Shown: positions 21,324 to 42,825 of the stretch, piece after piece
Layout of the letters: every line of letters starts with the position of its first letter
Numbering within the stretch: position 1 is the stretch's first letter
The notes under the pieces: generated by a model
Told to the model about the DNA's origin: nothing
The model's input: only the letters and a program-made list of their open reading frames with translations
Database searches by the model: none
Made by a program: the position numbers and the translations under genes
DNA from: a virus
Direction: 5' to 3' (one strand)
DNA: 64,000 nt
IMG/VR virus record: IMGVR_UViG_3300035180_002703
Coordinates: 10,465-74,464 of that record

Positions 21324-21358
21324 AACGATAAGCCGCCACCGTTCGCGGGGCGCACGTT
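21324..21358 (+). ncRNA. structured leader motif copy 1
   Basis: AACG AUAAGC CGCC A CCG(UUCG)CGG GGCG CA CGUU. Confidence 0.8.
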
Positions 21359-21372
21359 ATGGGGAGAGGGGT

Positions 21373-22170
21373 GTGGAGAAAGAGTACACGCAACAGTTGC
21401 TGGATCGCGCAGTGTGGAAACACCAGCGGTGGATGCGAGAGAAACGCTACGCGGCGCAGCGGCTCAATCTGTCAGACATTCAGCTGAACGGTCTCGATTT
21501 GTCGGGCCTTGACCTAAGCTACGCCATCTGCGTCAACACGACTTTCAACAAGTGCAACCTGAAGGGCGTGAACCTGATGTTGGGTGTTGCGGCGCAGGCC
21601 CGATTCCTGGAATCGAATCTGCGAGGGGCTGATCTCTCCCATTCTATGCTGTCGGAGGCCACCTTCTGGGCGAGCATCCTGTCGGAGTCCGACTTTGGCA
21701 GCGCGAATTGCTCGGGTGCATGTTTTGACGAAGTACTGCTTACCGGGGCGAGATTCAACAAGACCATCCTGTATGACGCAGTGTTCCGAAACGCTCACAA
21801 CGTGCCGGAATCCGCTCGGGCGTTCTCCCGCATCACTCCCGAAACCGGATCGTTCGAGATGTGGAAGAAATGCGACGGAGACGTGCTGGTGAGGCTTCTG
21901 GTTCCTGCGGATGCCCATCGGGAGAACGGGTGTTCGCGTCTACTGCGGGTCTCGAAAGCCGTTGTGCTGGAGATATTGGGGCCACACGGCGAAACGACGG
22001 TCAGAAACATGTCCGATCCAGATGTCGAGTACAAGGTCGGGGATGTTGTTACTCCGCGAGAAGGCTTCAACCCAGATTGGGAGAACGAGTATTCGGGAGG
22101 AATCCACGGATATCTGTCTCGCGCAGAGGCCGCATCACCAGGTATTTACAAGATCGATGTTGACGAATGA
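21373..22170 (+). CDS. pentapeptide repeat protein with DUF5758-like C-terminus
   Basis: A(D/N)LxX repeats, then WKKC...VRLLVPADA.R. Confidence 0.9.
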   Translation: MEKEYTQQLLDRAVWKHQRWMREKRYAAQRLNLSDIQLNGLDLSGLDLSYAICVNTTFNKCNLKGVNLMLGVAAQARFLESNLRGADLSHSMLSEATFWASILSESDFGSANCSGACFDEVLLTGARFNKTILYDAVFRNAHNVPESARAFSRITPETGSFEMWKKCDGDVLVRLLVPADAHRENGCSRLLRVSKAVVLEILGPHGETTVRNMSDPDVEYKVGDVVTPREGFNPDWENEYSGGIHGYLSRAEAASPGIYKIDVDE

Positions 22171-22221
22171 CACAGAAGCGAAACACTTAGGCGCATACAT
22201 TGGAAGAGGAGGAGAGGGAAT

Positions 22222-22596
22222 ATGGTATCGATTGTAACTGTCGCAATGCCCGTGGAGATGGGGCAGAAGCTTGAGGAACTGCGTGCGGAATACGGACACG
22301 CATCGCGGTCGGCGATCGTTCGGATGGCGGTTGAATCGTTCATCCGCGGCGGCGGCGTGGGTGGAGAGAAAAGCAAGTGTCCTGCTCTGACGTGGCATGC
22401 GGTATCAGATCAGTTGCCGGACGATTCGGAGGTGAAGCTCGTAACCGTTCTCGACTCACATGGTGGCCGTTGTGTGGCGACGTCCTATTACATCAAAGGC
22501 AGCTGGTACAGTGATGGCCCATACTCGTCGCTTCCTGTCATTGCATGGACCGATTGGCCGGAGGCATGGGACGGAGAGGTGAAGAAGAATGGATAA
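22222..22596 (+). CDS. ribbon-helix-helix protein with DUF551-like C-terminus
   Basis: VTVAMP...SRSAIVRMAV; W..VSDQLP...VIAW..WPE. Confidence 0.6.
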   Translation: MVSIVTVAMPVEMGQKLEELRAEYGHASRSAIVRMAVESFIRGGGVGGEKSKCPALTWHAVSDQLPDDSEVKLVTVLDSHGGRCVATSYYIKGSWYSDGPYSSLPVIAWTDWPEAWDGEVKKNG

Positions 22597-23047
22597 TGAT
22601 GGATTGCAGGTCGCCGAACGAGCAGAAGAAGAGCGCGGGGGAGAAGCGATAAAGCCTGGCGATCTGGTGATCTGCGGCGTAAATGGTGATCGAGGCCGGG
22701 TTGTGCGAACTCACACCAAGCTGGTCTGGACGGATGAACCAGAGATGAAGGTGCACGAAGAGACTGTACTCACCTGCGAGCTGCCCGAATGGAGCACGGA
22801 ATGGGAGTACGATGTCGATGAAGTGACCCCGGTAGAGATTGCACCGACTGGCACGAACAATGCGAACTGCAGTATTCGCGTTGGAGACGTCATCCAACTC
22901 GAAGAGACAGGTCTGCTTGCACGGGTTGAGTCTGTTACACTCAAGACGAAAGGTACACACGATGGAGTCAAACAGTACCTAGCATTCTCGGTCGTTATCG
23001 AACCTGGGCAACGCATGGTCTTGTGGGATACCGAGGTTGATATTTAG
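22589..23047 (+). CDS. hypothetical protein (two SH3-like modules)
   Basis: IKPGDLV and IRVGDVI. Confidence 0.6.
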   Translation: MDNDGLQVAERAEEERGGEAIKPGDLVICGVNGDRGRVVRTHTKLVWTDEPEMKVHEETVLTCELPEWSTEWEYDVDEVTPVEIAPTGTNNANCSIRVGDVIQLEETGLLARVESVTLKTKGTHDGVKQYLAFSVVIEPGQRMVLWDTEVDI

Positions 23048-23082
23048 ACTGCGAGGAGAACAACGACGCAAAGGAGGGTGGA

Positions 23083-23302
23083 AATGGAGAACATCGGGCT
23101 GAAAGTCGGTGACAGGGTCGTGGTGCTGCATGACGGCGAGCCGGGCAAAGTGGTGTTTCTGTCTTCCTACGGCGGATGGACAACACTCACGGTCAAGGCT
23201 GATATTGGCGGATGTGGCACATGGATGCTGAACGGGCCGGATGCGATTGCCGAGGTGGTCCGCAAGGTGCCTGCAGAAACGGGATGTATCGCCAATGCCT
23301 GA
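23083..23302 (+). CDS. hypothetical protein
   Basis: SD GGAGG; LKVGDRVV. Confidence 0.6.
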
Positions 23303-23342
23303 GCTGGGGGCGTGGAGTGGAGAGGAATAGGAGGGGGAATCA

Positions 23343-23882
23343 ATGAACAAGGTCTCTCAAGAAGAAATGAAAGGAATCCTCCAGCGTCATAGTCTGTGGC
23401 TACTCACGAGCGCTGGAGGGGAGCGTGCTATGCTGGCGGGATGTGATTTGAGGGGTCTCGATCTATCGGAAGCGAACCTGGCATATGCCAACATGGCAGG
23501 CTGCATGCTCGATAATGCGAACCTTTCTCGCGCTATGATGTCGTACGCAAACCTGGCCGACGCCACGCTGAGAGGGGTGAACGCCGTCGAGGCATCGTTC
23601 GATCGGGCCAACCTTTCTCACGCGATCCTGGCGCGGGCCGATCTGACGAATGCCAACCTGGAGTGGGCGATTTGTACGCAGACGGCATTCACCTACGCGA
23701 AGATGGATGGGATTCGGTTCTACGGCATCACGCTGGTTGGTGCATGGTTCATGGGAACGTCGGCTGTCGGCCATATGATAGAGGCTGCCAAGTATGATTT
23801 GAAGAACGCGCAGTGGACGCTCGACCGCATCGAAGAAGAGACCGAGAGACAGGCCAAACACGCACAGTTGTCGCAGTCGTAG
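23343..23882 (+). CDS. pentapeptide repeat protein
   Basis: ANLxx repeats. Confidence 0.9.
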   Translation: MNKVSQEEMKGILQRHSLWLLTSAGGERAMLAGCDLRGLDLSEANLAYANMAGCMLDNANLSRAMMSYANLADATLRGVNAVEASFDRANLSHAILARADLTNANLEWAICTQTAFTYAKMDGIRFYGITLVGAWFMGTSAVGHMIEAAKYDLKNAQWTLDRIEEETERQAKHAQLSQS

Positions 23883-23884
23883 CG

Positions 23885-23922
23885 TGCCCCAGTAAGCCGC
23901 CACCTTAGGGGGCGCATGGGCA
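23885..23922 (+). ncRNA. structured leader motif copy 2
   Basis: CCCA GUAAGC CGCC A..GGCG CA UGGG. Confidence 0.8.
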
Positions 23923-23934
23923 AGGAGGGGTGGG

Positions 23935-24615
23935 ATGACGAATAAGATGTCGCAGGAGAAGCTGGATCGGATTCTGGATGCACACGAGGCATGGCTGGGG
24001 AGGAAACCTGGAGGCAGAAGGGCTAGGCTGTGCGGAAAGAACATGTCGGGGCTGAACTTCGCGGGCCGTACGCTGAGGCACATCATCTTGGCAGACGCCG
24101 AACTGCACGGTGCGAACCTGTCCGGGGCCGATCTCGACGCAGCGAATCTCAGTTGCGCGAACATGTGGAGGGTAAATGCAGAGCGAGCAACTTTCCGAGA
24201 GACGGACCTTTCTTGCGCCGATCTCTCAGGTGCGAGGCTGTTCGACGCCGATCTCGATACAGCGAATCTCAGTCACGCGAAGATGTGGGGTGCGAATGCG
24301 GAGCGGGCGGCTTTCCGAGAAGCGAACCTTTCTTGCGCCGATCTGCGGAAAGCGAACCTAGAAGGATCGGTGTTTACCCAGGCTAATCTGTCTGGAGCTC
24401 GCCTATCAGGTGCGCATATCGACGGCGCTAAGTGGACGGACGCCGTCATGGCGATTGCGGATGTTCGCGATGTGGCTCCGACCGAGGAATTCCTGGATGC
24501 TTTTTACGATTGGAAGATATGTGTAGACAGTGCATATACAACTTGCTGCCAGCGTTACGCAGTGGCGGTAGCCACCCAAACGAATGGCGCTGACGAAACG
24601 GAGGGGGAACAATGA
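23935..24615 (+). CDS. pentapeptide repeat protein
   Basis: ANLSGADL repeats. Confidence 0.9.
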   Translation: MTNKMSQEKLDRILDAHEAWLGRKPGGRRARLCGKNMSGLNFAGRTLRHIILADAELHGANLSGADLDAANLSCANMWRVNAERATFRETDLSCADLSGARLFDADLDTANLSHAKMWGANAERAAFREANLSCADLRKANLEGSVFTQANLSGARLSGAHIDGAKWTDAVMAIADVRDVAPTEEFLDAFYDWKICVDSAYTTCCQRYAVAVATQTNGADETEGEQ

Positions 24616-25193
24616 AGCGAATGACACAGAAGAAGCTGAACAAGATTCTGGATGCACACGAGGCGTGGCTTAGGATGGAGAAGAAAGGGAAGAGGGCCAT
24701 GCTTTGTGGAAAGAACATGTCCGGCTTGGACTTCTCGGGGCGAAAGCTGAGACACGCATGCATGGCGCATTCCGTTCTGATGTATGCGAACCTGCGGGGT
24801 GCGGATTTCTCAGATGCCATTCTGATCGACGCGATTATGCTAGGAGCCGACGCAGAGAATGCGGTGTTCTGGAACGCGCACCTAACATCTGCAAATTTGT
24901 TGGATGCGAACCTGCGGAATGCGGACTTCACTCAGGCGATCGTTGTGGGGATTCTTCTAACGGAGGCGAACACGAAGGGGGCGATCTGGGACGACGCTGT
25001 TCGGCAATACTGGAATAAGCCCATGTGGTACTGGGAAACCGAGTTCGGAGAGTCGAAACATGACACAAACGAAACGGAGGGGGACAATGAAGCGAATGAA
25101 GCCAATGACACAGAAGGAGCTGAACAAGGTTCTGGATGCACATCAAGCGTGGCTGAAACTGAGGAAGGGCGAGATGGCTGTCCTAGCCAGTAG
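24612..25193 (+). CDS. pentapeptide repeat protein
   Basis: ANLRGADF repeats; tail overlaps the next gene. Confidence 0.85.
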   Translation: MKRMTQKKLNKILDAHEAWLRMEKKGKRAMLCGKNMSGLDFSGRKLRHACMAHSVLMYANLRGADFSDAILIDAIMLGADAENAVFWNAHLTSANLLDANLRNADFTQAIVVGILLTEANTKGAIWDDAVRQYWNKPMWYWETEFGESKHDTNETEGDNEANEANDTEGAEQGSGCTSSVAETEEGRDGCPSQ

Positions 25194-25614
25194 GAACATG
25201 TCCGGCTTGGACTTCTCGGGCAGGAACTTGTTCTTGGCAAACCTGTCTCGTGCTGATCTGCATGGCGCAAAACTGAGAGGTACGGACCTGCAGTCTTGCG
25301 ACCTGAGCGGTGCGGATATGCATGATGTGGATGCAGAGGGTGCGTCATTCGAGAAGGCTCAGTTGACTCGTGCGTGCCTGAGGAAAGCGAACCTGCGCAG
25401 AGCAAATTTTAGCAAGGCGTGTCTTGCTGGCGCTGATCTATCGGGTGCACATATCCAGAACGCAGTCTGGGATTATGCCGACATGAACTTCGGGTTTGCC
25501 AACGGAGTAATGCCGAGGGAAGAGCTGTTAGAGGCCCTGAAGCAGTGGAAGCTCCGTGTTGATGCCGAGTACGAGAAGTTCTGCGCGGATGTTGAGGAAC
25601 ACTCGGAGAAATAG
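25087..25614 (+). CDS. pentapeptide repeat protein
   Basis: ANLSRADL repeats. Confidence 0.9.
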   Translation: MKRMKPMTQKELNKVLDAHQAWLKLRKGEMAVLASRNMSGLDFSGRNLFLANLSRADLHGAKLRGTDLQSCDLSGADMHDVDAEGASFEKAQLTRACLRKANLRRANFSKACLAGADLSGAHIQNAVWDYADMNFGFANGVMPREELLEALKQWKLRVDAEYEKFCADVEEHSEK

Positions 25615-25615
25615 C

Positions 25616-25645
25616 TTGACAAACCCGAAGAAGACGGGATATAAT
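25616..25645 (+). promoter_or_regulatory. sigma70 promoter
   Basis: TTGACA-18-TATAAT. Confidence 0.8.
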
Positions 25646-25658
25646 ATGTACGTAGAAA

Positions 25659-25693
25659 GCCGATAAGACGCTACCTGTTACGGAGCGCGCGGG
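25659..25693 (+). ncRNA. structured leader motif copy 3
   Basis: CCG AUAAGA CGCU A..AGCG CG CGG. Confidence 0.8.
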
Positions 25694-25703
25694 CTGAGGG
25701 GGA

Positions 25704-26045
25704 ATGAGCATGAAGCGTGTGGTAAATGGCCTGCTGTACGATACCGACACTTCCCATTTGATTGCGGAGGGCTTGTCGAGAGACTATTGGGGAAGATCAG
25801 CATGGCAAGGCAGCCTGTATATCACGCCGAGGTCTCGCAGATGGTTCGTAGTGGGCCACGGCGATCCCGATAGCATCTTTTCGGGAATCCCAAATAACGA
25901 GGGGATTGTGCCAGTCGACTCCAAGTTTGTCGTGGACATGCTCGAATACGTTGAGGAAGACGTGTTCAACATACTGCTGAAGTACAAAAGCGATCTTGGA
26001 ATTCGCGATGCCGACGAAGTGCCAATTGGCACGGTCGGCTGCTAG
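25704..26045 (+). CDS. hypothetical protein, YDT paralog family
   Basis: VVNGLLYDT...LYITPRSRRWF. Confidence 0.75.
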   Translation: MSMKRVVNGLLYDTDTSHLIAEGLSRDYWGRSAWQGSLYITPRSRRWFVVGHGDPDSIFSGIPNNEGIVPVDSKFVVDMLEYVEEDVFNILLKYKSDLGIRDADEVPIGTVGC

Positions 26046-26060
26046 AAAGGAGAGGGAACA

Positions 26061-26408
26061 ATGAAGCAAGTCATTGACGGTATTCGCTACGATACCGAGA
26101 AGGCGGTTCCTGTTGCGCGGGTCTCCGGCAATAGCGGAACCCCGCACTGGTTCAGTGGCACGCTCTACATCACTCCGAGGTCTCGCCGGTGGTTTATGTC
26201 GGGCGATGGCGGTCCATACAGTCCGTTCGGCCAGAGCGTCGGCTGGGGCGCATACGCCAGCGGATCGGGGATCGCACCTCTAACTCCGGAGCGCGCTCGG
26301 GAGATTCTTGAGGGAGGGGATGATGAGTGCCAGAGCGCGATGGAAAGGTATGCCGAGGAGCTCGGCATCGTCGACGCGGATGACGTGAAGGAGCTGGCCA
26401 CTGTCTGA
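26061..26408 (+). CDS. hypothetical protein, YDT paralog family
   Basis: VIDGIRYDTEKA...LYITPRSRRWF. Confidence 0.75.
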   Translation: MKQVIDGIRYDTEKAVPVARVSGNSGTPHWFSGTLYITPRSRRWFMSGDGGPYSPFGQSVGWGAYASGSGIAPLTPERAREILEGGDDECQSAMERYAEELGIVDADDVKELATV

Positions 26409-26466
26409 TCGGTCCAGAACCCCGGGGGGGCAGGCAGAACACCCCCCGGGGGAAGAATAGAAGGGG

Positions 26467-26495
26467 TTGACAAGCCGACTATCGTATGATATAAT
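26467..26495 (+). promoter_or_regulatory. sigma70 promoter
   Basis: TTGACA-17-TATAAT, extended TG. Confidence 0.9.
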
Positions 26496-26509
26496 ATGTA
26501 CATAGTCAA

Positions 26510-26540
26510 GCCGATAAGCCGCCAACAAGAGGCGCACGGC
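26510..26540 (+). ncRNA. structured leader motif copy 4
   Basis: GCCG AUAAGC CGCC AACAAGA GGCG CA CGGC. Confidence 0.8.
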
Positions 26541-26555
26541 GAAAGGAGAGGGAAC

Positions 26556-26864: not shown

Positions 26865-26865
26865 C

Positions 26866-26930
26866 TGCCGAAACCGGCTTTCGGGCCGGTCTGCACCGGG
26901 CGGCTCCCGGCGCACTGAAGAGGCAAGCCG
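26866..26930 (+). ncRNA. type II hammerhead ribozyme
   Basis: UGCC GAAA-stem III(UUCG)-GUC-stem I-CUGAAGA GGCA; loop I CGGCU complementary to 3' AGCCG. Confidence 0.92.
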
Positions 26931-26959
26931 ATAAGTCGCCACCTTAGGGGGCGCAACGG
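26927..26959 (+). ncRNA. structured leader motif copy 5
   Basis: CCG AUAAGU CGCC A..GGCG CAA CGG. Confidence 0.8.
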
Positions 26960-26973
26960 AGGGGAGGGGAGAA

Positions 26974-28030: not shown

Positions 28031-28033
28031 CGG

Positions 28034-28062
28034 TTGACGGGATCGGCGTGATGGGATATAAT
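28034..28062 (+). promoter_or_regulatory. sigma70 promoter
   Basis: TTGACG-17-TATAAT. Confidence 0.8.
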
Positions 28063-31898: not shown

Positions 31899-32291
31899 AT
31901 GGTTGGTTCCCGTCGGATGAAGTACGGCAATAACCGGGTTCGGGTGGATGGGCAGTTGTTCGACTCTGTCGGAGAGTACGAGCATTGGAAGCATTTGCGG
32001 GAACGGGAGGCTGCCGGGGAGATCAGTGATCTGAAGCGACAGATGGCATTCGAGCTTGCTCCGTCACTTGTCCTCTGGGGTCGCAAGAAACCTGCATTGC
32101 GATACATCGCCGATTACGTGTACATGGAGAACGGCGAGCGTGTTGTCGCTGACTACAAGGGCGGGCCGCTGACGCCATTGTTTCGCGCGAAGGCGCATCT
32201 GCTGAAGGCGGTGCATGGCATCGATATCCTCATTGTGCGTGGTCGGGCCGATCGTCGCGGGAGGGGCGGAAATGAAGCGAATAACGCTTGA
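31899..32291 (+). CDS. DUF1064-family endonuclease
   Basis: KYGN..V.VDG..FDS..E...Y.ADY.Y...DYKG. Confidence 0.85.
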   Translation: MVGSRRMKYGNNRVRVDGQLFDSVGEYEHWKHLREREAAGEISDLKRQMAFELAPSLVLWGRKKPALRYIADYVYMENGERVVADYKGGPLTPLFRAKAHLLKAVHGIDILIVRGRADRRGRGGNEANNA

Positions 32292-33663
32292 TCTGAATGA
32301 TCTGGTTGTGCAGGGAAACATTCGGCGTTTGACGTTTGCCGAACGGGGCGCGTTCGACATATTATTGGAGCAGTATATCACGCGCGGAGGCTCGCTGCCG
32401 TTGGACGTGGACGAATGTTGCGATTTGGCCTCGGCGCGAACTGAGGAGGATCGGGCGGTAGTGAAGTCGACGCTGTCGGCGGCGTTTCGTGCGACCGATG
32501 ATGGTTGGCGCAGCACCTGGGCCGATGGTCTCGCGGAGCGTGTCGGTCGGCGTTCGGACACCTATCGGGAGAATGCCGTGGCGCGTTGGTCGAAGTCGCG
32601 GAATGGCGTTGATATCGCTGATAATGCATGCAATAGCATCGGCGAAAATGCAATTGCAATGCAATTGCATCCGGAGAAATGCAATTGCATCGGCTCGAAC
32701 GGGATCGGACCGAAAATCGCATCTGATAGTGCTGATAATGGCGTTGATATCGCTGATAACTCATGCAATTGCATCGAATCACATGCAATTGGAATGCAAT
32801 TGCATCAGGCGGAATGCAATTGCAATGCAATAGCATCGGCGGGAATGCAATTGCATCAGGCGGAATGCAATTGCAATGCAATAGCATCAGATTGCATGAA
32901 TTCGCATGGAATCGCGTCGAAAAGCGTCCAAGATGGCGATGATGACGCTGTTTCTGACGTTCCCCCCCCTTATAACCCCCCTATATACAAAGACTCTATA
33001 CTAATACAAAGAGTCTTTGACTCTAAGAGACTCTCTACCTCTGAAGACTCTATATCTAACAAAGAGTCTTGTAAGACTCTAAAAGACTATAAAGACGAAG
33101 AGAGTCTTGGCGTTGAGAAGAGAGATTGTACGAATTACCACTCTTGCGCAAATCGCGTCGATTTTGCGCTTTTCGATGTCGAAAACGACGTTGAAGCACA
33201 GGGCGATGGCGTTGCGCAACCTGACGTCGCGAACAACGCCACGACGCTGGACCCGGGGCACGGTGGTAGTAGTCGCTCGAAAGGATGGACCGCGGAGGAA
33301 GTGAAGGAGAAACAGTTGCGTGGCTTCAACAGGTTCTGGGAACTTCAACCCCGAAAGGTCGATAAGGCTCGGTGCTGGGCATGGTGGCAGCGCAACGTTC
33401 GCGAACGCGGCATCGCTCCGGCTATCATCAACGGCTTCAAGGCATATCTCGCCACGTGCAATCCGGAGGATAACTTCAAGTACGCGAAGCGACCCATAAC
33501 CTGGCTCCGTGGTAGGTGCTGGGAGGACGAAGGGCTCGATCCTTCTGCTCTGGAGGCTGTTCTACCTGCTCGCGAACCCATCCGCGATCTCGGATTCGAG
33601 TATAGTGCAGAGAATCTCGAACGAACGCTCGGAATCTCGCTTCCACGCGCGAAAAGCGGCTAA
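32272..33663 (+). CDS. phage replication initiator (YdaU/DUF1376-like N-terminus)
   Basis: ERGAFDILLEQY, central repeats, FNRFWELQPRKVDK...TWLRGRCWED; upstream of DnaB. Confidence 0.8.
   Translation: MKRITLDLNDLVVQGNIRRLTFAERGAFDILLEQYITRGGSLPLDVDECCDLASARTEEDRAVVKSTLSAAFRATDDGWRSTWADGLAERVGRRSDTYRENAVARWSKSRNGVDIADNACNSIGENAIAMQLHPEKCNCIGSNGIGPKIASDSADNGVDIADNSCNCIESHAIGMQLHQAECNCNAIASAGMQLHQAECNCNAIASDCMNSHGIASKSVQDGDDDAVSDVPPPYNPPIYKDSILIQRVFDSKRLSTSEDSISNKESCKTLKDYKDEESLGVEKRDCTNYHSCANRVDFALFDVENDVEAQGDGVAQPDVANNATTLDPGHGGSSRSKGWTAEEVKEKQLRGFNRFWELQPRKVDKARCWAWWQRNVRERGIAPAIINGFKAYLATCNPEDNFKYAKRPITWLRGRCWEDEGLDPSALEAVLPAREPIRDLGFEYSAENLERTLGISLPRAKSG
32600..33110. repeat. iteron-like repeats, probable replication origin
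   Basis: Many TGCAATTGCA palindromes (32646-32880), then AT-rich AAGACTCT/AGAGTCTT repeats (32989-33108). Confidence 0.65.
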
Positions 33664-33767: not shown

Positions 33768-35153
33768 GTGAGTAACAACCGTCTGCCGCCGCAAAGTCTG
33801 GAAATGGAACAGGCAGTCTGCGGCGCTATGCTGATCGACCCGGAAGCGGTCTGGACGTGCGCATCCATTCTCCGACAAACGGACTTCTACCGAGTCGAAC
33901 ATGGTACCGTCTTCGCAGCAGTCATCGCCGTCGCGTCGCGCGGGCAGGCGGTCGACGTGCTCACAGTCCAAGAAGAGCTTCGCTCGGCAGGCAATCTCGA
34001 AACTTGCGGAGGCGCTCCTTATCTGGTTCACCTCACAGACTGTGTACCTTCTGCAGCTAACGCGGAATATTATGCTAAGGTCGTGGCGGAGAAAGCTACT
34101 CTGCGACGTATCTCGGACGCTGGCTCGCAGCTGCGTACGATGGTCTATGCGGATTACGACGAAATCGGCGATGTCTGCGATAAGGCGTTTCGTACGGTCA
34201 TGGACGCAGTTTCGCATCGTGATAGTCGCAACCCATCAGACGCTCGTACGCTGGTCGAAGAAATTCTCGCGGAAGTCGATAAATTGCGCGAAACTGGAGA
34301 AATTCCGGGCCTTTCTACCGGATTCGCTGATCTCGATACGGCAACGGCGGGGTTCTGCGGAGGTGAACTCGTTATCGTCGCAGGCGCTCCGTCTATGGGC
34401 AAATCGGCTTTCGCGCTCCAAATCGCTCGCCACGTCGCTCGCAAGCACGGGCCCGTCCTTATCGTCTCACTCGAAATGTCTGGACGGGAAATCATGCATC
34501 GACAACTTTCTATCGAATCTGGTATCGACCTGCTACGATTGCGACGCGGAATGGTCTCGAAGGAAGAGCGAGAAACGCTAGATAGAGTCGGAAAGACTCT
34601 CTGCTCGGAACCGGTGCTCATTCACGATCGCGGCGTCGATTCGCTCGGCGCAATCCGACAAGCAGTTCGACGAATGAGGCCGGAACCGGTTATGGTGCTC
34701 GTCGATTACCTGCAAATCATGCGAGTCGAACGTGTCACGGATAATCGGGCGCAGGACCTCGGCGCTATCTGCAGAGGCTTGAAACGTCTCGGCATGGATT
34801 ACGAAATGCCAGTGGTCCTATTGTCACAACTTTCACGCGAAATCGCAAGGCGAAACGATCGCAAACCGGTTATGTCTGATCTCCGAGACTCGGGCGCGAT
34901 AGAACAGGACGCGGATATCGTGCTCGGATTGTATCGCGAGAATTACTACAAGTCACAAGGCGTTGTAACGCGAGACTCGCCACCGGAGGAAGCGGAAATC
35001 CTGATCATGAAACAACGCAACGGGCCGCGCGGTTCGGTTCGCGTTATGTTTCGACCGGCTACGGCGCAGTGGGCGTCTGGAATGTTTGGCGCGCGTGCTG
35101 ACGCATACACGCGATATGATCAGACGCCAAACGATGAAGACTATACCGACTAG
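33768..35153 (+). CDS. dnaB: replicative DNA helicase
   Basis: PPQSLEMEQ, GAPSMGKS, SLEMS, VDYLQ, LSQLSR, DLRDSGAIEQDAD, KQRNGP. Confidence 0.95.
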   Translation: MSNNRLPPQSLEMEQAVCGAMLIDPEAVWTCASILRQTDFYRVEHGTVFAAVIAVASRGQAVDVLTVQEELRSAGNLETCGGAPYLVHLTDCVPSAANAEYYAKVVAEKATLRRISDAGSQLRTMVYADYDEIGDVCDKAFRTVMDAVSHRDSRNPSDARTLVEEILAEVDKLRETGEIPGLSTGFADLDTATAGFCGGELVIVAGAPSMGKSAFALQIARHVARKHGPVLIVSLEMSGREIMHRQLSIESGIDLLRLRRGMVSKEERETLDRVGKTLCSEPVLIHDRGVDSLGAIRQAVRRMRPEPVMVLVDYLQIMRVERVTDNRAQDLGAICRGLKRLGMDYEMPVVLLSQLSREIARRNDRKPVMSDLRDSGAIEQDADIVLGLYRENYYKSQGVVTRDSPPEEAEILIMKQRNGPRGSVRVMFRPATAQWASGMFGARADAYTRYDQTPNDEDYTD

Positions 35154-36247: not shown

Positions 36248-36250
36248 AAA

Positions 36251-36313
36251 GCCGAAACCGGTCTTCGGGCCGGTCTATGCAGGACGGCTACCTGCATACT
36301 GAAGAGGCAAGCT
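36251..36313 (+). ncRNA. type II hammerhead ribozyme
   Basis: GCC GAAA-CCGGUC(UUCG)GGCCGG-UC-UAUGCAGG(loop)CCUGCAUA-CUGAAGA GGC. Confidence 0.92.
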
Positions 36314-36314
36314 T

Positions 36315-36347
36315 CTGCATAAGTCGGCACCTTCGGGGCCGCGGCAG
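36315..36347 (+). ncRNA. structured leader motif copy 6
   Basis: CUGC AUAAGU CGGC A CC(UUCG)GG GCCG CG GCAG. Confidence 0.8.
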
Positions 36348-36360
36348 GTTGGAGGTAGAT

Positions 36361-36669: not shown

Positions 36670-36686
36670 CTTTGGCGTTGTGCTAG

Positions 36687-36719
36687 GCGCATAAGTCGGC
36701 ACCTATCGGGCCGCGGCGC
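36687..36719 (+). ncRNA. structured leader motif copy 7
   Basis: GCGC AUAAGU CGGC A..GCCG CG GCGC. Confidence 0.8.
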
Positions 36720-36735
36720 ATGGAGGGGCGAAGGA

Positions 36736-37289: not shown

Positions 37290-37302
37290 AAGGAGGGGAG
37301 CG

Positions 37303-37854: not shown

Positions 37855-38132
37855 TGGACGCGAATCTGTTTTCGAAGTTCGTCTGCATGGTCAACGACCG
37901 CAAGGATGGTAAGACGTTCGGCGCGGATTTGAGGCTCAGGCCGAGTGGTCGTTTTATCCTCGTCGCTGACGAAGTCGAAGTCGCGAAGGCGCTGGGGCGG
38001 GAATACTACGACTGCGACCCGCGGAGGACTGCCATTGTCGAGATCAGCGTTCGCGATGCGTTCGCGATGATGGCGCGTGACTGTGACGAAGAGACTCTTG
38101 CGCACTATGCCCGCGTGTTGGCGCGGGCATAG
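37854..38132 (+). CDS. hypothetical protein, paralog of 38148
   Basis: FG.DLRL.P.GRF.LV...A.ALGR. Confidence 0.7.
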   Translation: MDANLFSKFVCMVNDRKDGKTFGADLRLRPSGRFILVADEVEVAKALGREYYDCDPRRTAIVEISVRDAFAMMARDCDEETLAHYARVLARA

Positions 38133-38147
38133 GAAGGAGGCGGAGGA

Positions 38148-38450
38148 ATGTCTGCAAAGTCGCGTTCGACGGGGTACCGAGAAGAGCGGTCGGAACATGT
38201 CTGCGTTCTCAGTACGCTATCGTACCATAATCCGTTTGGGCCGGAATTGCGGATAATGCCAGATGGCAGGTTCTTCATGGTCGGAAACGCGGGCGAGATC
38301 GCTGACGCGTTGGGACGGGATACCTGCGAAGGCAGTCGGTGGGCTAGCGTCGTTGTGTCGATCACGGCGCGCGAGGCGTTCGAACTACTGACGCGCGAAG
38401 GTGATTCGGAAACGTTGTCGCGCTATGCGTTCGCGCTAGCTGGCATGTAG
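38148..38450 (+). CDS. hypothetical protein, paralog of 37854
   Basis: FGPELRIMPDGRFFMV. Confidence 0.7.
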   Translation: MSAKSRSTGYREERSEHVCVLSTLSYHNPFGPELRIMPDGRFFMVGNAGEIADALGRDTCEGSRWASVVVSITAREAFELLTREGDSETLSRYAFALAGM

Positions 38451-38474
38451 GGAAACATACCAGGCAACGAACAC

Positions 38475-38503
38475 TTGACAAGTCTTTGCGGGCGTGATAT
38501 AAT
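38475..38503 (+). promoter_or_regulatory. sigma70 promoter
   Basis: TTGACA-17-TATAAT, extended TG. Confidence 0.9.
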
Positions 38504-38526
38504 ATGTGTGTTGGTGAACGGGAGGG

Positions 38527-38557
38527 GCCGGTAAGTCGCCACTACGGGGCGCGCGGT
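38527..38557 (+). ncRNA. structured leader motif copy 8
   Basis: GCCG GUAAGU CGCC A C(UACG)G GGCG CG CGGU. Confidence 0.8.
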
Positions 38558-38570
38558 TCGGAGGTGTTCG

Positions 38571-38954
38571 ATGGACGCGAAGGGGCTGGCGGTTCGTGTG
38601 AACGCGTTGCAGTGGCGAATCTGGAAGGGCGTCGGGGTCGAAGTGTCTTATGATGACGCTTACCGATTGCGAGGGGCGGCGGAGAGTCTGCGCCGGTGGT
38701 ATCGCATGGAATACGGAAACGGGCGCGGTCAGGTAACGCGCGATAAGTCTGGCAGGTCGGTTTTCGTCGATTGCGTTACGACTAAGGCGAAACCGGTTCC
38801 AGATCGTGAGGCGGTGGCGTTGCGTGAGGTTATGGAGGTATGCGCAAGGTGCGGTTTGGCATACCGAACGAGCCACGATTTCCGTGGTTCGGTCTTGTTC
38901 GTGTTCTCTCAGTCGGATACTACTGCGCATCCGAAGGCGGTCGCGTGCGAATGA
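38571..38954 (+). CDS. hypothetical protein, paralog of 40732
   Basis: DDA..LR.AA..LRRWY..E.G. Confidence 0.7.
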   Translation: MDAKGLAVRVNALQWRIWKGVGVEVSYDDAYRLRGAAESLRRWYRMEYGNGRGQVTRDKSGRSVFVDCVTTKAKPVPDREAVALREVMEVCARCGLAYRTSHDFRGSVLFVFSQSDTTAHPKAVACE

Positions 38955-39532
38955 GACCGCGAACCGATTGGGCGCAGATCGCGCCGAAACACTGGGACCG
39001 TGTCAGCGTCGGCATGGCGAACGCTGTGCTGCGCGTGGCGCGCGTGGTACATGGCGCGCGGAATGACCTCGAAACATGGATAACGTCAAGCGCCGTACCT
39101 GTGCGGGGCGAGTGGATGGGGGAGCATCCGAAGTTGGAGGATATCGCCGAAGGGCTTTCCGTTGTCGAGGATTTGCCGTTCGTGTCTCAGTATGATGGGC
39201 GATTCCACTACTACCAGGACATTCGAGAAGGGATTTTCTCGTGTCGCGTGTCCGAGCCCGTTCATGGCGGAGCTGTCGAAACGATCATAGAAACTGGTGC
39301 GGGTTGGTCCGCGCTTGCGGGGATGGTCGATTCCGAGGGGTTCTGCGAGGTTCGCGGAAACATGGAGAAGGCGGATTCCTACTGGTACGAGGCGTGGGCG
39401 GCGATAGGTTTGACGGCACCTATGGGGCCGGTTATGAAACATGGAGAGGGAGAGTGTCTGCGGTGGTTCAAGCGCGGATACGGGCATTATGCCGGGCCCA
39501 TTCAGCTGTCGTTACTCTTGGAGGCGGTCTGA
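38951..39532 (+). CDS. hypothetical protein with C-terminal QLSLL
   Basis: ATGA coupling; distantly like the AW.RAW family. Confidence 0.65.
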   Translation: MRPRTDWAQIAPKHWDRVSVGMANAVLRVARVVHGARNDLETWITSSAVPVRGEWMGEHPKLEDIAEGLSVVEDLPFVSQYDGRFHYYQDIREGIFSCRVSEPVHGGAVETIIETGAGWSALAGMVDSEGFCEVRGNMEKADSYWYEAWAAIGLTAPMGPVMKHGEGECLRWFKRGYGHYAGPIQLSLLLEAV

Positions 39533-39559
39533 ACGGGAGCACGAAAGCCGGGGGGGGGC

Positions 39560-39588
39560 TTGACAAGCTCTGTCGAGTGTGATATAAT
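39560..39588 (+). promoter_or_regulatory. sigma70 promoter
   Basis: TTGACA-17-TATAAT, extended TG. Confidence 0.9.
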
Positions 39589-39609
39589 ATGTGTGCAGTT
39601 GGACGGGGG

Positions 39610-39648
39610 GCCGATAAGTCGCCATTGCCAGTCTGGCAGGCGCGCGGT
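39610..39648 (+). ncRNA. structured leader motif copy 9
   Basis: GCCG AUAAGU CGCC AU UGCCA..UGGCA GGCG CG CGGU. Confidence 0.8.
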
Positions 39649-39656
39649 TCGGAGGA

Positions 39657-40334
39657 ATGAAGATGGACGCGGAGCAGGTTTGGGCGGCGTTGCCGGTGCG
39701 TTTGAAGAATGTGGCGCTTGCCATGGCCCGTGAGTATAATCACGGGTGGGCCGCGTCGTCTGCAGTACCGCCGGCGGGCGAATACTGGGAGTTTCCGGAG
39801 GAGGTCCCGTCGTTGGATCAGATCAAGGCGGGAACTCCTGAAGGACCGCGCGGGCGTGGTATCGCCGGCCCGTGCGTGTCGGGAGCTGACGGATTCTTGT
39901 ACATTACTCATGGCTCGGCCACGGGCAGGCTGCTCATTATCGTTCGGTATTCGGAGCAGGAGGGCGAGCGGTATACCGTGCGCATCGCTCGTCCGAACGG
40001 GAGGAACGCGCAGGGAACATACTGCGTGGATCAGCAGCAGTATGCCGGGAGCGCGGAGGCTACCGCGTGGGGCCCGCGGCATTTTGCCGCGTGGCATCGC
40101 GCGTGGGGAGTGCTTGGCCTTTCTCCGGCGTTCCCGGAACTCGCGCGAGAGTGGGAGTTCGACTTGACGGAGGAAGGAATCCCGAATGACGGGCGGTTGG
40201 AGTTTGCGACCGTTCACCTGCGGGCGGGAGCCCGTCCGCGGGCGGAGGACTTGTATGATTGTCTTCGCATCGCTGACGCAGTCTATGTTCACGGGGCGAA
40301 CGGAGGAGTCGCCCGGATAGTTGCGCAGGACTGA
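39657..40334 (+). CDS. hypothetical protein, AW.RAW paralog family
   Basis: VWAALP...AREY...HFAAWHRAW. Confidence 0.75.
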   Translation: MKMDAEQVWAALPVRLKNVALAMAREYNHGWAASSAVPPAGEYWEFPEEVPSLDQIKAGTPEGPRGRGIAGPCVSGADGFLYITHGSATGRLLIIVRYSEQEGERYTVRIARPNGRNAQGTYCVDQQQYAGSAEATAWGPRHFAAWHRAWGVLGLSPAFPELAREWEFDLTEEGIPNDGRLEFATVHLRAGARPRAEDLYDCLRIADAVYVHGANGGVARIVAQD

Positions 40335-40375
40335 TCGGCGGGAGCAGGTTCGGGCGCGTGCAGGTGCGGGCGAGG

Positions 40376-40615
40376 GGCGCAGAGTCTCTCGCTCGTGCTT
40401 GCGCGTGCTCGTGCGTGTCGGGCGCGTACGCGGGCGCATACGGTCGGGCGCGTGTTCGTGGTACCCGCGGGCGTTCGCGCGCGTCTCCGTCGATCCTGGC
40501 GCGATTATGGCGCATTCTGGCAGGGGCCCGGGCCGTCGTGCGTGCGTGCGTGCGTGTTCGCGTGCGTGCGTTCGCGTGTTGCCGTCTATGGTATCTGGCA
40601 ATAGGCGAAACATAC
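40376..40615. repeat. dispersed GC-rich intergenic repeat, copy A
   Basis: GGCGCAGAGTCTCTCGC...GATCCTGG block also at 41826-41973. Confidence 0.8.
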
Positions 40616-40638
40616 CGGGATAATCTTTCGGGCAGGGC

Positions 40639-40667
40639 TTGACAGGTTCGGCGGCGCATGGTAGTAT
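40639..40667 (+). promoter_or_regulatory. sigma70 promoter
   Basis: TTGACA-17-TAGTAT, extended TG. Confidence 0.75.
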
Positions 40668-40679
40668 ATATGCATAACT

Positions 40680-40718
40680 ACCGATAAGTCGTCACTACCG
40701 AGAGGCAGGGCGCGCGGT
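40680..40718 (+). ncRNA. structured leader motif copy 10
   Basis: ACCG AUAAGU CGUC A..GAGA loop..GGCG CG CGGU. Confidence 0.8.
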
Positions 40719-40731
40719 GCGGAGGGGTGAC

Positions 40732-41106
40732 ATGGACGCATACGATAAGACCGAACTCGTTCGGTTGCGGATTCTCGCCGGGTGCGGTGTCAAGCTTGCC
40801 TTTGATGATGCGCAGACTCTGCGCCGGGCCGCGCGAACGCTTCGCCGCTGGTACGAGGCGGAATGTGGGGATGCATCGGGCGTCGTTTTCCGCGGGCCGG
40901 GCGGTAAGCCGTTCCGCGAGTCTTATACGGGCGCGTCTGTTCCCGTACGCGATATGGAGTCTGGCGCGGTCCGCCGCGTGCAGGAGGTTTGTACGCGGTA
41001 TGGGCTAAGCTATAAGCTGAACACGGACCCGCGCGGCGGCGTGCTATATGTTACGTCTCCCGCGTTGTCGTTAGATTATTCGTTCGGTGTGCCCGTCGAC
41101 GTTTGA
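40732..41106 (+). CDS. hypothetical protein, paralog of 38571
   Basis: DDAQTLRRAARTLRRWYEAECG...DPRG. Confidence 0.75.
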   Translation: MDAYDKTELVRLRILAGCGVKLAFDDAQTLRRAARTLRRWYEAECGDASGVVFRGPGGKPFRESYTGASVPVRDMESGAVRRVQEVCTRYGLSYKLNTDPRGGVLYVTSPALSLDYSFGVPVDV

Positions 41107-41138
41107 TGGGGCGCAGGTTCGGGCGGGGTGCTGGTAGT

Positions 41139-41176
41139 CGCCGGTAAGGCGCTAACGCGAAGGCGGGCGCGCGGCG
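41139..41176 (+). ncRNA. structured leader motif copy 11
   Basis: CGCCG GUAAGG CGCU AA..GGCG CG CGGCG. Confidence 0.8.
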
Positions 41177-41189
41177 CAGGAGGGATTCG

Positions 41190-41594
41190 ATGGATTCTCA
41201 TGAGGTGTGGGCGGCGCTTCCGGAGCATGTGCGCGAAGTGGCGCAACGCATCGCGCGCGAATACGGGCCGAATGTCTCTCTTTCCGAGTCGGCGTTCGAG
41301 TGTTGCGGCGGGTTGTGTTGGGGATACCGCGGGTATGACGGGGCCCGATTCTATATCGCGATACTCTGGACCGAGGATAGGGGGTTGCGGTGCTTCGTTG
41401 GGGTCGACGGATACCTGCCGCATATCGCATATGGTTCGTGTTCGCTGACGGACGGGAAACTGCTTGAGCATCATGCAGACTCGGGAGAGTGGCAGGACCG
41501 TCACTATGCGGCGTGGCGTCGCGCGTGGGGCGCAGTCGGGTTGTCTGTGCCGTTTCCGGGAGCGGCGCAGGAGGTTCGCTATGATTGTCTGTGA
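41190..41594 (+). CDS. hypothetical protein, AW.RAW paralog family
   Basis: VWAALPEHV...HYAAWRRAWG. Confidence 0.75.
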   Translation: MDSHEVWAALPEHVREVAQRIAREYGPNVSLSESAFECCGGLCWGYRGYDGARFYIAILWTEDRGLRCFVGVDGYLPHIAYGSCSLTDGKLLEHHADSGEWQDRHYAAWRRAWGAVGLSVPFPGAAQEVRYDCL

Positions 41595-41790
41595 TTATCA
41601 CTCCAAGGGCCGGGGCGCGTCGTTCTCCGGGTCTCGGGTGACTATTCGGACCGCTTCAGGCAGTGTAGTCGACGTTATCTACGTGCCGTCATGGTACGGT
41701 TTGAGGTACCTGCGGCAGCATCCGTCTGGTACATACGGGCGCAGGTTCTCGGCGGCGTGCGCGCGGGCCCGGGAGTTGGATCAGGGCTAA
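41581..41790 (+). CDS. hypothetical protein
   Basis: SD AGGAGG. Confidence 0.55.
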   Translation: MIVCDYHSKGRGASFSGSRVTIRTASGSVVDVIYVPSWYGLRYLRQHPSGTYGRRFSAACARARELDQG

Positions 41791-41825
41791 GCGCGGTTCT
41801 CGGCGGGCGCAGTAAGCGGGCGGGA

Positions 41826-42241
41826 GGCGCAGAGTCTCTCGCCCGTTCGCGTGCGTGCGTGCTCGTGCTCGTGCTCGTGCGTGCGTGCGTGTCGGGCGCG
41901 TACGCGGGCGCATACGGTCGGGCGCGTGTCGCAGGTACCTGCGGGCGTTCGCGCGCGTCTCCGTCGATCCTGGAGCGGTTGCGGCGCATTCTGTCGCGGT
42001 GGTAGTCTGTCGGCGGCGTGTTCGCGTGTCGGTCGTTCGCGCGTGCGTGTTCGCGTGCACTACCTGCCGGGCGCGGTGGTAGTCTACCTGCCGGCGGCGC
42101 GGGCTGGATCGGGCGGCGCAGGTACCACGGCGGGCGCGTCGTGCTCGTGCTCGTGCGTGCGTATGCGTGCGTGCGTATGCGTGCGCGTGCGTGTTCGCGT
42201 GCGCGTTGCCGGGGGGTTGTCTGGCAATAGGCGAAACATAC
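41826..42241. repeat. dispersed GC-rich intergenic repeat, copy B
   Basis: Matches 40376-40615, including TCTGGCAATAGGCGAAACATAC. Confidence 0.8.
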
Positions 42242-42263
42242 TAAGTTTTTTTAGTCGCGGCTA

Positions 42264-42292
42264 TTGACTCGGCGCGCGCGGCGTGGTATTAT
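42264..42292 (+). promoter_or_regulatory. sigma70 promoter
   Basis: TTGACT-17-TATTAT, extended TG. Confidence 0.75.
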
Positions 42293-42303
42293 CTATGCAT
42301 AAC

Positions 42304-42342
42304 AACCGGTAAGGCGCTATCGCAAAGGCGAGGCGCGCGGTT
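42304..42342 (+). ncRNA. structured leader motif copy 12
   Basis: AACCG GUAAGG CGCU A UCGC(AAAG)GCGA GGCG CG CGGUU. Confidence 0.8.
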
Positions 42343-42349
42343 CGGAGGA

Positions 42350-42739
42350 ATGAAAATGGACGCTCTGCAGCAGGTTCGCGAAGCATGGGCCGGTCTGCCG
42401 TACCTGGTGAAGGCGCGCGCGGGCGCGGTGGCGGCAGTGTTCAACGTCGACGAGCCTTCTGACTATGCGTTTGTCGGTTCAGACGGTGCCTATGGCTGGT
42501 CGTGTGCGGTAGTTCCGAGCGGGCTTTCTGTTCTCATTCGTTCCCGGGCGTCCGGTATGCTCCTGGTCGTTACTGTGTACAACGAGGAAGGGCAGGCTAT
42601 CACGGCGTCGATCGGAGAGGACATGTTCGAAACTACAACGATCGGTACGGAGTGGGGGCCGCGGCAAGCGGCGCTTTGGAATCAGGTTTGGGCGGTTCTC
42701 GGATACCGTATGCCGTTTCCTGTTCCCGTGAAGTGCTAG
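42350..42739 (+). CDS. hypothetical protein, AW.RAW paralog family
   Basis: AWAGLP...WGPRQAALWNQVW..LG...PFP. Confidence 0.7.
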   Translation: MKMDALQQVREAWAGLPYLVKARAGAVAAVFNVDEPSDYAFVGSDGAYGWSCAVVPSGLSVLIRSRASGMLLVVTVYNEEGQAITASIGEDMFETTTIGTEWGPRQAALWNQVWAVLGYRMPFPVPVKC

Positions 42740-42785
42740 GCGTGCAAGGGCCGGGCGGGGCGCAAGCTCCGCTCGGCTTGCAGGT

Positions 42786-42825
42786 CGCCGGTAAGTCGCT
42801 AACGCCGGAAGGCGGGCGCGCGGCG
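42786..42825 (+). ncRNA. structured leader motif copy 13
   Basis: CGCCG GUAAGU CGCU AA CGCC(GGAA)GGCG GGCG CG CGGCG. Confidence 0.8.

Follow-up and report, generated by a model that had tools for sequence, protein, structure and literature searches.

The window analysed here is a 64,000-nucleotide stretch of viral DNA, corresponding to bases 10465 to 74464 of the 74.5-kb IMG/VR virus record IMGVR_UViG_3300035180_002703, which is approximately 67% complete. Its genes, all + strand, form three blocks: genes for tail proteins and glycosyltransferases as far as ~20 kb; small, mostly orphan genes between 21 and 43 kb, including those for a DnaB helicase and two pentapeptide-repeat proteins; and the genes encoding the small terminase, the large terminase (TerL), and the portal protein, from 46.4 kb. 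The second block carries thirteen copies of a structured RNA element, hereafter called the leader, a single hairpin located immediately upstream of the following gene's Shine-Dalgarno (SD) sequence. The thirteen leaders are listed below with the bit scores given by R1, a covariance model built from these same sequences, and with the start codons of their genes; P1, P2, and P3 are the outer, inner, and apical helices.

21324-21358, + strand: leader 1, P1 AACG/CGUU, UUCG loop; 52.6 bits; GTG 21373
23888-23920, + strand: leader 2, P1 CCCA/UGGG, operon-internal; 51.9 bits; ATG 23935
25659-25693, + strand: leader 3, P2 CGCU/AGCG; 48.6 bits; start 25704 or 25710
26510-26540, + strand: leader 4, no P3 helix, 7-nt loop; 44.5 bits; ATG 26556
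26927-26960, + strand: leader 5, 3-nt 3' loop (CAA), directly behind hammerhead 1; 51.2 bits; ATG 26974
36315-36347, + strand: leader 6, P1 CUGC/GCAG, P2 CGGC/GCCG, UUCG loop, behind hammerhead 2; 47.5 bits; ATG 36361
36687-36719, + strand: leader 7, P1 GCGC/GCGC, operon-internal; 50.3 bits; ATG 36736
38527-38557, + strand: leader 8, UACG loop; 48.1 bits; ATG 38571
39610-39648, + strand: leader 9, 5-bp P3; 49.9 bits; start probably 39663
40680-40718, + strand: leader 10, P2 CGUC/GGCG, GAGA loop; 52.3 bits; ATG 40732
41139-41176, + strand: leader 11, 5-bp P1, operon-internal; 47.8 bits; ATG 41190
42304-42342, + strand: leader 12, 5-bp P1; 52.3 bits; start probably 42356
42786-42825, + strand: leader 13, 5-bp P1, GGAA loop; 50.2 bits; likelier start ATG 42839

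A preliminary description of this DNA had proposed thirteen intergenic elements with a common fold. All of them were recovered, all on the + strand, and the described architecture was present in 13/13: P1 of 4-5 bp, an internal loop with R-U-A-A-G-N facing C-R, a 4-bp P2 (CGNN/NNCG), a bulged A, and a variable hairpin. When R1 was run with filters off, the 13 leaders scored 44-53 bits and the next best site in the 64 kb only 10.7 bits, and the copy number is therefore exactly 13. No leader was found in the first 10.5 kb of the record. A partial leader pattern matched nine times in the window, when 0.02 matches were expected. The stems had also been said to change in sequence while keeping their pairing, and the alignment of the window copies bore this out: 92% of the cells were paired and both sides changed in 8/10 pairs, values reached in 0/500 shuffles, while slid controls were 33-55% paired. 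Likewise, five of the thirteen apical loops are of the UNCG (three) or GNRA (two) type. The isolated elements mostly folded into the proposed structure, and their thermodynamic z-scores were unremarkable (−1.9 to +0.55), no better than those of shuffled sequences; it is thus covariation, and not stability, that supports the structure.

The motif, which the preliminary description did not recognise, had no counterpart in Rfam 15 either: cmscan placed no family over any leader, at gathering thresholds in the whole window or at E<=5 in the region 21000-47000, nor at the loci of the relatives described below. Literature searches retrieved no published description of it.

Pattern scans combined with covariance models recovered full-length copies outside this phage, in no fewer than 15 other phage or mobile-element records, and the leader is not private to this phage but widespread in other phages and mobile elements. 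Exact-pattern scans were made of IMG/VR and of one genome per prokaryotic species, and each was screened by covariance model. The first, narrow pattern scan of viral contigs gave no match and looser patterns did; blastn with a low-GC leader found nothing, the core being too short for BLAST. A second covariance model, R2, gathered 56 copies at E<=0.001 from 19 sources (alignment A6), comprising three Clostridia/Eubacteriales metagenome-assembled genomes and other uncultured phages whose GC content is 40-65%, and local GC at the leader loci ranged from 40 to 70%. Five related high-GC phage records (G001-G005) hold two to five copies each. Further full-length copies occur in G006, G008, the complete 41-kb phage G007, and several short contigs; G009 carries a leader at a local GC of 40%, and the leader is also present in G013, a 76-kb record that is 89% complete. 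In each of the three bacterial assemblies, all leader copies sit at one locus, and among 151 sampled genomes of the bacterial class only one, the query genome itself, contained the leader, as a mobile element would give. The genes downstream of the leader in these relatives encode unrelated small orphan proteins, the leader being spread across unrelated gene contents.

The phage itself has no close relative among GenBank phages detectable by megablast or tblastn, and a locus search with TerL as sole query found none. A TerL profile search returned relatives at ~40% identity, and no leader was found within 10 kb of TerL in these. TerL homologues with 81% and 66% identity exist on other contigs, and four DNA runs from sediment and microbial-mat metagenomes contain the phage, with no RNA run listed as containing it.

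Across the family, the leader is a single hairpin of 31-40 nt that reads, from 5' to 3', P1 (4-5 bp, free in sequence), a 6x2 internal loop R-Y-A-A-G-N/C-R, P2, the bulged A, and P3, which is short, usually starts with CC/GG, and ends in a variable, often stable, apical loop. In 46 distinct copies from the 19 sources, 95.2% of the cells were paired and 9/10 pairs changed on both sides, with 99 double-changed cells versus 29 in shuffles (0/500 reached 99) and 32-57% pairing in slid controls. Invariant throughout the 56 copies were the two loop adenines, the C-G pair of P2 nearest the loop, the C on the 3' strand of the loop, and the bulged A; the loop G was kept in 54/56, and the first two loop positions varied only as R and Y. 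The position of the element was equally constant: the SD (GGAG) began 0-6 nt after the 3' strand of P1 in 56/56 copies and the start codon ~12-17 nt after it, and the SD columns and the start codon aligned almost gap-free in all copies. The leaders of the window end 13-16 nt before the start codon, if start codons are chosen by spacing. The preliminary reading of a cis-acting RNA element thus stands in so far as the element covaries and is found in early genes, separated from the SD by only a few nt; the roles then proposed for it, all involving a shared partner, were partly supported.

Several structural identities were considered for the core. A kink-turn, whose hallmark is a 3-nt bulge and then tandem sheared G.A/A.G pairs, was rejected on sequence inspection, the loop strands being R-Y-A-A-G-N/C-R in 56/56 copies with no GA/GA arrangement, and a split SD using the UAAG was ruled out on topology. 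In 16S helix 21, the S8 site has a 5' strand that UAAGUC may resemble; the three 3'-strand bases required by S8 have no counterpart in the leader. The loop may also resemble the CCUAAG strand of the 11-nt tetraloop receptor.

The covariation also bears on whether the leader could be mainly a homology patch at the DNA level, which would serve cassette shuffling and have an incidental RNA fold. The PeSL motif acts in this manner, in DNA shuffling. It is described as a composite promoter-terminator motif of T4-type phages (PMC2839356, PMC4122927). The likeness lies in a short repeated cassette, an early promoter with a hairpin, placed in hyperplastic regions before orphan genes that vary, and in hints of recombination at the repeats. 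In the window, the genes bounded by promoter-plus-leader units are variable paralogues, and metagenome contigs show joints at leaders, with short sides. Contigs of the four metagenome runs join 42799 to 38544, that is, leader 13 to leader 8, or skip 4477 nt from 38564 to 43042, between leader-adjacent points, and the leader-bearing genes form paralogous, fast-changing families. However, compensatory changes in 9/10 pairs and invariant unpaired bases denote selection on RNA, homologous recombination would be inefficient with arms so short and so variable, and the short-sided joints in metagenome contigs are weak evidence. Unlike PeSL as there described, the leader lies downstream of the promoter in the 5' untranslated region (UTR), abuts the SD, and has an invariant internal loop and covariation at the RNA level. 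A DNA patch as the main function is thus hardly credible, and shuffling as a side effect of the leader is weakly indicated by the joints, given their short flanks. A further contig joint in the four sediment and mat metagenomes connects 41571 to 42746. Together, the joints suggest strain variants that differ by whole leader-gene cassettes.

Most leaders of the window follow a device that would give the RNA a new 5' end. The preliminary description had placed seven copies behind sigma70 promoters, and all seven were found, five with a perfect TTGACA-17-TATAAT and two promoter-like at 10/12 positions; the −10 hexamer ends 12-23 nt before P1. It had also placed two copies behind hammerheads, which agrees with our data: both are of type II, one above the Rfam threshold and the other at 31 bits with equal architecture.

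21282-21310, + strand: promoter of leader 1, TTGACA-17-TATAAT, 12/12, ending 13 nt before the leader
25616-25645, + strand: promoter of leader 3, 12/12, ending 13 nt before the leader
26467-26495, + strand: promoter of leader 4, 12/12, ending 14 nt before the leader
38475-38503, + strand: promoter of leader 8, 12/12, ending 23 nt before the leader
39560-39588, + strand: promoter of leader 9, 12/12, ending 21 nt before the leader
40639-40667, + strand: promoter of leader 10, 10/12 with TG, ending 12 nt before the leader
42264-42292, + strand: promoter of leader 12, 10/12 with TG, ending 12 nt before the leader
26866-26933, + strand: type II hammerhead 1 (Hammerhead_II, RF02276), 38.7 bits, gathering threshold 37
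36250-36316, + strand: type II hammerhead 2 (RF02276), 31 bits, E 0.01, below the threshold of 37

In hammerhead 1, the GUC lies at 26889-26891, and the predicted 3' product begins at 26892, 35 nt before leader 5, with the 3' tail of the ribozyme overlapping P1 of this leader. Hammerhead 2 has the same architecture and a predicted cut after 36275. The family RF02276 is defined by a core of CUGANGA, GAAA, and GUC, with closed stems I and III. The four remaining window copies are operon-internal, with no recognisable promoter or ribozyme upstream.

The same arrangement was observed in the relatives. Promoters before leaders are of the sigma70/sigmaA type, often with TG and often with a terminator ahead. 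In G001-G005, the promoter is TTGACA-17-TGgTATAGT and ends ~16 nt before P1, and a terminator with an A-run and a T-run (AAAAAAACUYGGGAUUUUUU) lies immediately 5' of it, so that a complete cassette runs from terminator and promoter through leader and SD to the gene. Five threshold-passing type II hammerheads (42-54.5 bits) abut leaders, two in G001 and one each in G002, G004, and G005, where the leader is cut by the contig end; as in the window, the 3' tail of the ribozyme runs into P1. A second, unrelated class, the pistol ribozyme (RF02679), was detected in two loci from Eubacteriales/Clostridiales assemblies, L120 and L128, at 65.2 bits each versus a threshold of 34.5, with four to five further leader copies at each locus.

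L120, 1169-1238: pistol ribozyme, ending 1 nt before P1 of a leader
L128, 1125-1194: pistol ribozyme, ending 1 nt before P1 of a leader

A weak twister-like match (E 0.16) abuts one more copy and was not counted as a ribozyme. A scan for hammerhead-plus-leader patterns added only false positives. In L115, L120, and L128, copies that have neither promoter nor ribozyme carry an A-rich repeat of the form CAGAACAGAAC directly before P1; this is possibly where a host RNase cuts, or else a component of the module that has escaped recognition. In G006 (L191/L164), a conserved block with AGCGGGAGCGUUGC lies ~40-70 nt upstream of three leaders, once with CUGAUGAG nearby; it had no match among Rfam ribozymes and may be a variant or an unknown processing element.

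The preliminary description had also considered a nut/put-like role. In such a role RNA polymerase would be modified by the nascent hairpin, with or without a protein, and would read through terminators in the early operons. The leader lies just downstream of early promoters, and lambda nut (boxB) and HK022 put are likewise small RNA hairpins close to the promoters of early operons; the conservation of RNA polymerase suffices to account for the wide host range, and an upstream ribozyme cut would leave a new leader tethered to the polymerase. However, this role gives no function to the strict 0-6 nt spacing to the SD, and the apical loops vary, unlike boxB with its conserved GNRA-like loop. Terminator-like sites are not enriched in the early operons (16 versus 12.3 expected), and thirteen copies, several of them operon-internal directly before cistrons, exceed the usage of nut/put systems. 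The leader also differs from them as one ~35-nt hairpin instead of two stems of ~70 nt. Processive antitermination is very unlikely. Membership in nut boxB or put was rejected, since the length of P3 and the apical loops vary freely in a single 31-40 nt hairpin. A sigma70-dependent pause element was also rejected: the key T is missing, and copies are operon-internal as well.

As regards a protein partner, an all-against-all comparison found no protein family that the high-GC phages share with the distant records bearing leaders, which argues against a dedicated phage-encoded partner, and Pfam and PHROGs scans found no RNA-binding domain among more than 40 window proteins. These negatives count against an operator for a sequence-specific RNA-binding protein, of phage or host, that would jointly repress or activate the early set. 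T4 RegA, the MS2 coat protein operator, and the ThrRS operator are examples of such systems, and in the thrS and rpsO operators the protein bound 5' of the SD blocks entry of the 30S subunit. The leader has an invariant single-stranded AAG, a bulged A, and a fixed C-G pair that resemble a protein recognition surface; it adjoins the SD on the 5' side, a place from which a bound protein keeps the 30S subunit out; and it precedes thirteen co-regulated early cistrons. Yet no protein family co-occurs with it across distant records, none of the window proteins scanned looks like an RNA binder, and the promoters and ribozymes just upstream are left unexplained. We consider a protein operator unlikely.

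The explanation that we favour, with a probability of about one half, is that early orphan genes carry the leader as a portable expression module in the 5' UTR, and that conserved machinery of the host probably reads it. The platform of the 30S subunit is where structured mRNA immediately 5' of the SD sits, and the strictly adjacent position of the SD suggests ribosome binding or events coupled to it. Three different 5'-end-making devices just upstream suggest that the function needs separation from upstream RNA or a near 5' end. The invariant core, the wide host range, and the lack of a co-travelling protein together argue for a conserved host partner. From these features, we infer an action on translation or stability and a partner of host origin. 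The leader, at the 5' edge of a strong SD, would make each early orphan cistron autonomous, with efficient translation, a stable mRNA, or both. The fold would keep the context of the SD constant, and the invariant core would be the docking surface for a conserved host component, perhaps the 30S platform beside the SD or, as a second guess, a 5'-end-dependent RNase or its blocker. The upstream promoter, hammerhead, or pistol would supply a fresh 5' end and free the module from upstream RNA. The translational-enhancer role raised in the preliminary description is retained to this extent: the fixed position fits it, or a similar role linked to the ribosome-binding site (RBS), best, and the mechanism is an inference.

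Several points weigh against this explanation. The predicted accessibility of the SD changes little with the leader, being 0.53 unpaired versus 0.42 when the leader arms are forced single-stranded. An insulator or stabiliser alone needs no AAG/C/bulged-A core, so that a specific partner must exist. Neither promoter nor ribozyme was detectable upstream of the four window copies mentioned above or of some copies in relatives. A ribozyme-made 5' end lies 35-40 nt before the leader with the ribozyme hairpin between them, and the leader itself is therefore not 5'-terminal. Fragmentary records and the sensitivity of BLAST could hide a remote shared protein partner, many of the related records being fragments in which BLAST would miss such a protein. 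Finally, most distant copies were first located with patterns in which TAAG, the 3' CGC, and some of P2 were fixed, and part of the invariance of the core is thus built in; the extra copies that R2 found in known loci, together with free variation elsewhere in the hairpin, argue that the core is real.

It is possible, though doubtful, that the association goes further and that unrelated ribozyme classes of phages and mobile elements (type II hammerhead, pistol, perhaps twister) exist to release leader-headed mRNAs, the AAG/bulged-A core being a ribosome dock or a block to 5'-end-dependent RNases. Messages with a 5'-OH would in this way be made as translatable and stable as primary transcripts. 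If this were true, bacterial and phage ribozymes would gain a general function, and the core would represent a new class of ribosome- or RNase-directed RNA element.

The expression module has natural and synthetic parallels. RiboJ, a synthetic insulator (the term is used in PMC7536230), consists of the sTRSV ribozyme and a hairpin before the RBS. The order of ribozyme, hairpin, SD, and gene is the same here, as is the presumed benefit, expression independent of upstream context, and the leader would be the natural counterpart of such ribozyme-hairpin-RBS insulators. In contrast to RiboJ, the arrangement is natural, uses a type II hammerhead or a pistol and not sTRSV, and has a conserved hairpin core that an insulator would not need. 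Known 5'-UTR stabilisers include the ompA 5' hairpin, the aprE leader, the cryIIIA STAB-SD, and the SP82 stabiliser. They share with the leader a stem-loop near the 5' end by a strong SD, and theirs are found on highly expressed messages; they are single-gene elements with no common sequence core, whereas the hairpin described here can lie 35-40 nt from a ribozyme-made 5' end. In Perreault 2011, hammerheads flank single genes, including ardA, in prophages, and are proposed to cut polycistronic RNA into gene-length mRNAs (PMC3088659). The type II hammerheads of the window lie in the same way between small phage or anti-restriction-type genes, and our explanation extends that proposal. The difference is that a covarying leader follows the ribozyme here and occurs also behind promoters and a pistol; the passages searched in that paper do not mention a conserved element downstream of the ribozyme.

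A concrete candidate for a trans-acting partner was found downstream of the early genes. The preliminary description had listed an antisense target among the possible roles, and the following unit sits just before the terminase genes.

46117-46246, + strand: candidate trans RNA unit, with a promoter-like site, a ~94-nt RNA (46153-46246), and a terminator

The promoter-like site has a −35 TTGACA, an 18-nt spacer, and a weak −10 TATAAC, and the terminator is a 14-bp hairpin at 46207-46239 followed by ATTCTTT. Within the RNA, positions 46173-46194 are complementary to the two arms of the leader, with 9 nt for the 3' arm, 10 nt for the 5' arm, and GUA as the link between them. Pairing with the 13 leaders involves 12-19 of the 19 arm positions, including G-U pairs (mean 17.1), with U or G opposite the three variable R/R/N positions; in leader 4 both arms are an exact complement (19/19), when the best matches in 40 simulated sequences were 15-18/19. 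The RNA has a predicted fold with a z-score of −2.85, which places GCUUAU, the complement of the leader internal loop, in an 8-nt apical loop. In layout, the unit resembles a lambdoid late promoter with its short, terminated transcript. Terminator 43069-43094, which ends the last leader-bearing unit, has the same ATTCTTT tail as terminator 46207-46239, which ends the antisense RNA unit.

The leader could accordingly be regarded as mainly the target of this antisense RNA in an early-to-late switch: GCUUAU would seed on the AUAAGN loop, and pairing would spread to a ~19-bp interrupted duplex by the SD that blocks ribosomes or invites RNase III. The complementarity is bipartite, exact for leader 4, tolerant of wobble at the variable positions, and unlikely by chance. 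The RNA has its own promoter-like site, a terminator, and a stable seed-exposing hairpin just before the late terminase genes, and 9/13 window leaders keep P1 as (G/A)CCG, more than pairing alone demands. On the other hand, the search for a counterpart was negative in the fragments G001-G005, which lack the terminase region, in the complete G007, and in the 89%-complete G013. The RNA does not contact the invariant 5' strand of P2 and the bulged A, and cannot therefore explain the family-wide invariants. Leaders 6 and 7 pair at only 12-14/19; a duplex-energy scan ranked leaders high, but other GC-rich sites scored equally; the segment could equally be an inverted, internally deleted leader remnant; and the −10 hexamer is weak. 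A weak recurrent complement in G001, G002, and G004 was rejected as apparent coding sequence with no promoter or terminator. We thus rate the antisense RNA as not being the reason why the leader exists, and a family devoted mainly to antisense control as quite unlikely. That the RNA is a functional, lineage-specific addition to the expression module is a plausible but tentative suggestion drawn from the complementarity: it can pair with all 13 leaders at both arms, and so may silence the early genes once infection is late. Such a possible switch in this phage, with one RNA and thirteen targets, would be akin to the bipartite phage antisense regulators P1/P7 c4 RNA, P22 sar, and lambda OOP. Like c4, the 46153-46246 RNA could pair by two short segments next to the RBS; unlike c4, it would have thirteen targets with one structured leader, it has no Rfam C4 match, and it is not conserved in relatives. 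The antisense role proposed earlier therefore gains a candidate partner at 46173-46194, but one for which no counterpart was found in relatives and which leaves the core unexplained.

The proteins encoded downstream of the 13 leaders belong to at least seven families, in which paralogues are only 25-48% identical, and the leaders are far better conserved than these paralogous proteins. Pentapeptide-repeat proteins, two of which are encoded here, are often DNA mimics used against host defences.

21373-22170, + strand: gene after leader 1, starting at GTG 21373, encoding a pentapeptide-repeat/DUF5758 protein
23935-24615, + strand: gene after leader 2, encoding a pentapeptide-repeat protein

After leader 13, the spacing suits ATG 42839, which opens a 59-aa open reading frame (42839-43018), better than the frame starting at 42834. 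A terminator follows the 59-aa frame, and the 310-aa Arg/Gly/Pro-rich frame at 42834-43766 is probably spurious.

Neighbours that look like anti-defence cargo, such as the pentapeptide-repeat proteins, raise the question of whether the leader is itself an RNA decoy that absorbs a host RNA-binding nuclease in the manner of Racr or pseudo-ToxI. It is early, multi-copy, and promoter-proximal, as are the viral solitary units of clustered regularly interspaced short palindromic repeats (CRISPR) named Racr (PMC10651486). A mimic should copy one repeat, however, and the leader stems covary freely; the tight coupling to the SD and start codon would be unexplained; and neither Rfam CRISPR-DR families nor any other matched at E<=5, the CRISPR repeats of the host itself not being among the comparisons. 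A decoy function is, on this evidence, scarcely likely.

Ribozyme-punctuated phage operons (2011) and the promoter-hairpin cassettes of T4-type phages (PeSL) are already known. As far as Rfam 15 and the literature searches show, the leader family, its invariant core, and its coupling to two ribozyme classes and to promoters are new. The preliminary description contained neither the spread of the leader beyond this phage nor its coupling to ribozymes of two classes. The role of self-cleaving ribozymes in bacterial and phage genomes has been in question since the 2011 catalogues, and here two unrelated classes and strong promoters converge on one covarying leader at the RBS of fast-evolving early genes. 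The question thus becomes concrete: what effect the leader has on translation and decay of messages with a 5'-triphosphate versus a 5'-OH, and what binds its core. In uncultured phages, the leader could readily serve to mark cassettes of early or anti-defence genes, and it is a natural template for context-independent expression parts.

Between the early genes and the antisense RNA unit, a 3-kb stretch (43100-46120) has 65-69% GC and a strongly negative AT skew, and is flanked by two terminators. Its 715-aa open frame (43973-46120) has no Pfam or PHROG match, and metagenome contigs show many internal skips and back-joins; the stretch looks more like a variable repeat-like array than an ordinary gene. 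Finally, long palindromic hairpins at 32815-32886 and 32619-32669 gave weak matches to microRNA hairpin models on both strands. They lie inside a DUF1376 gene (32215-33663) that adjoins the helicase gene, and may constitute an origin-like inverted repeat.

33768-35153, + strand: DnaB helicase gene

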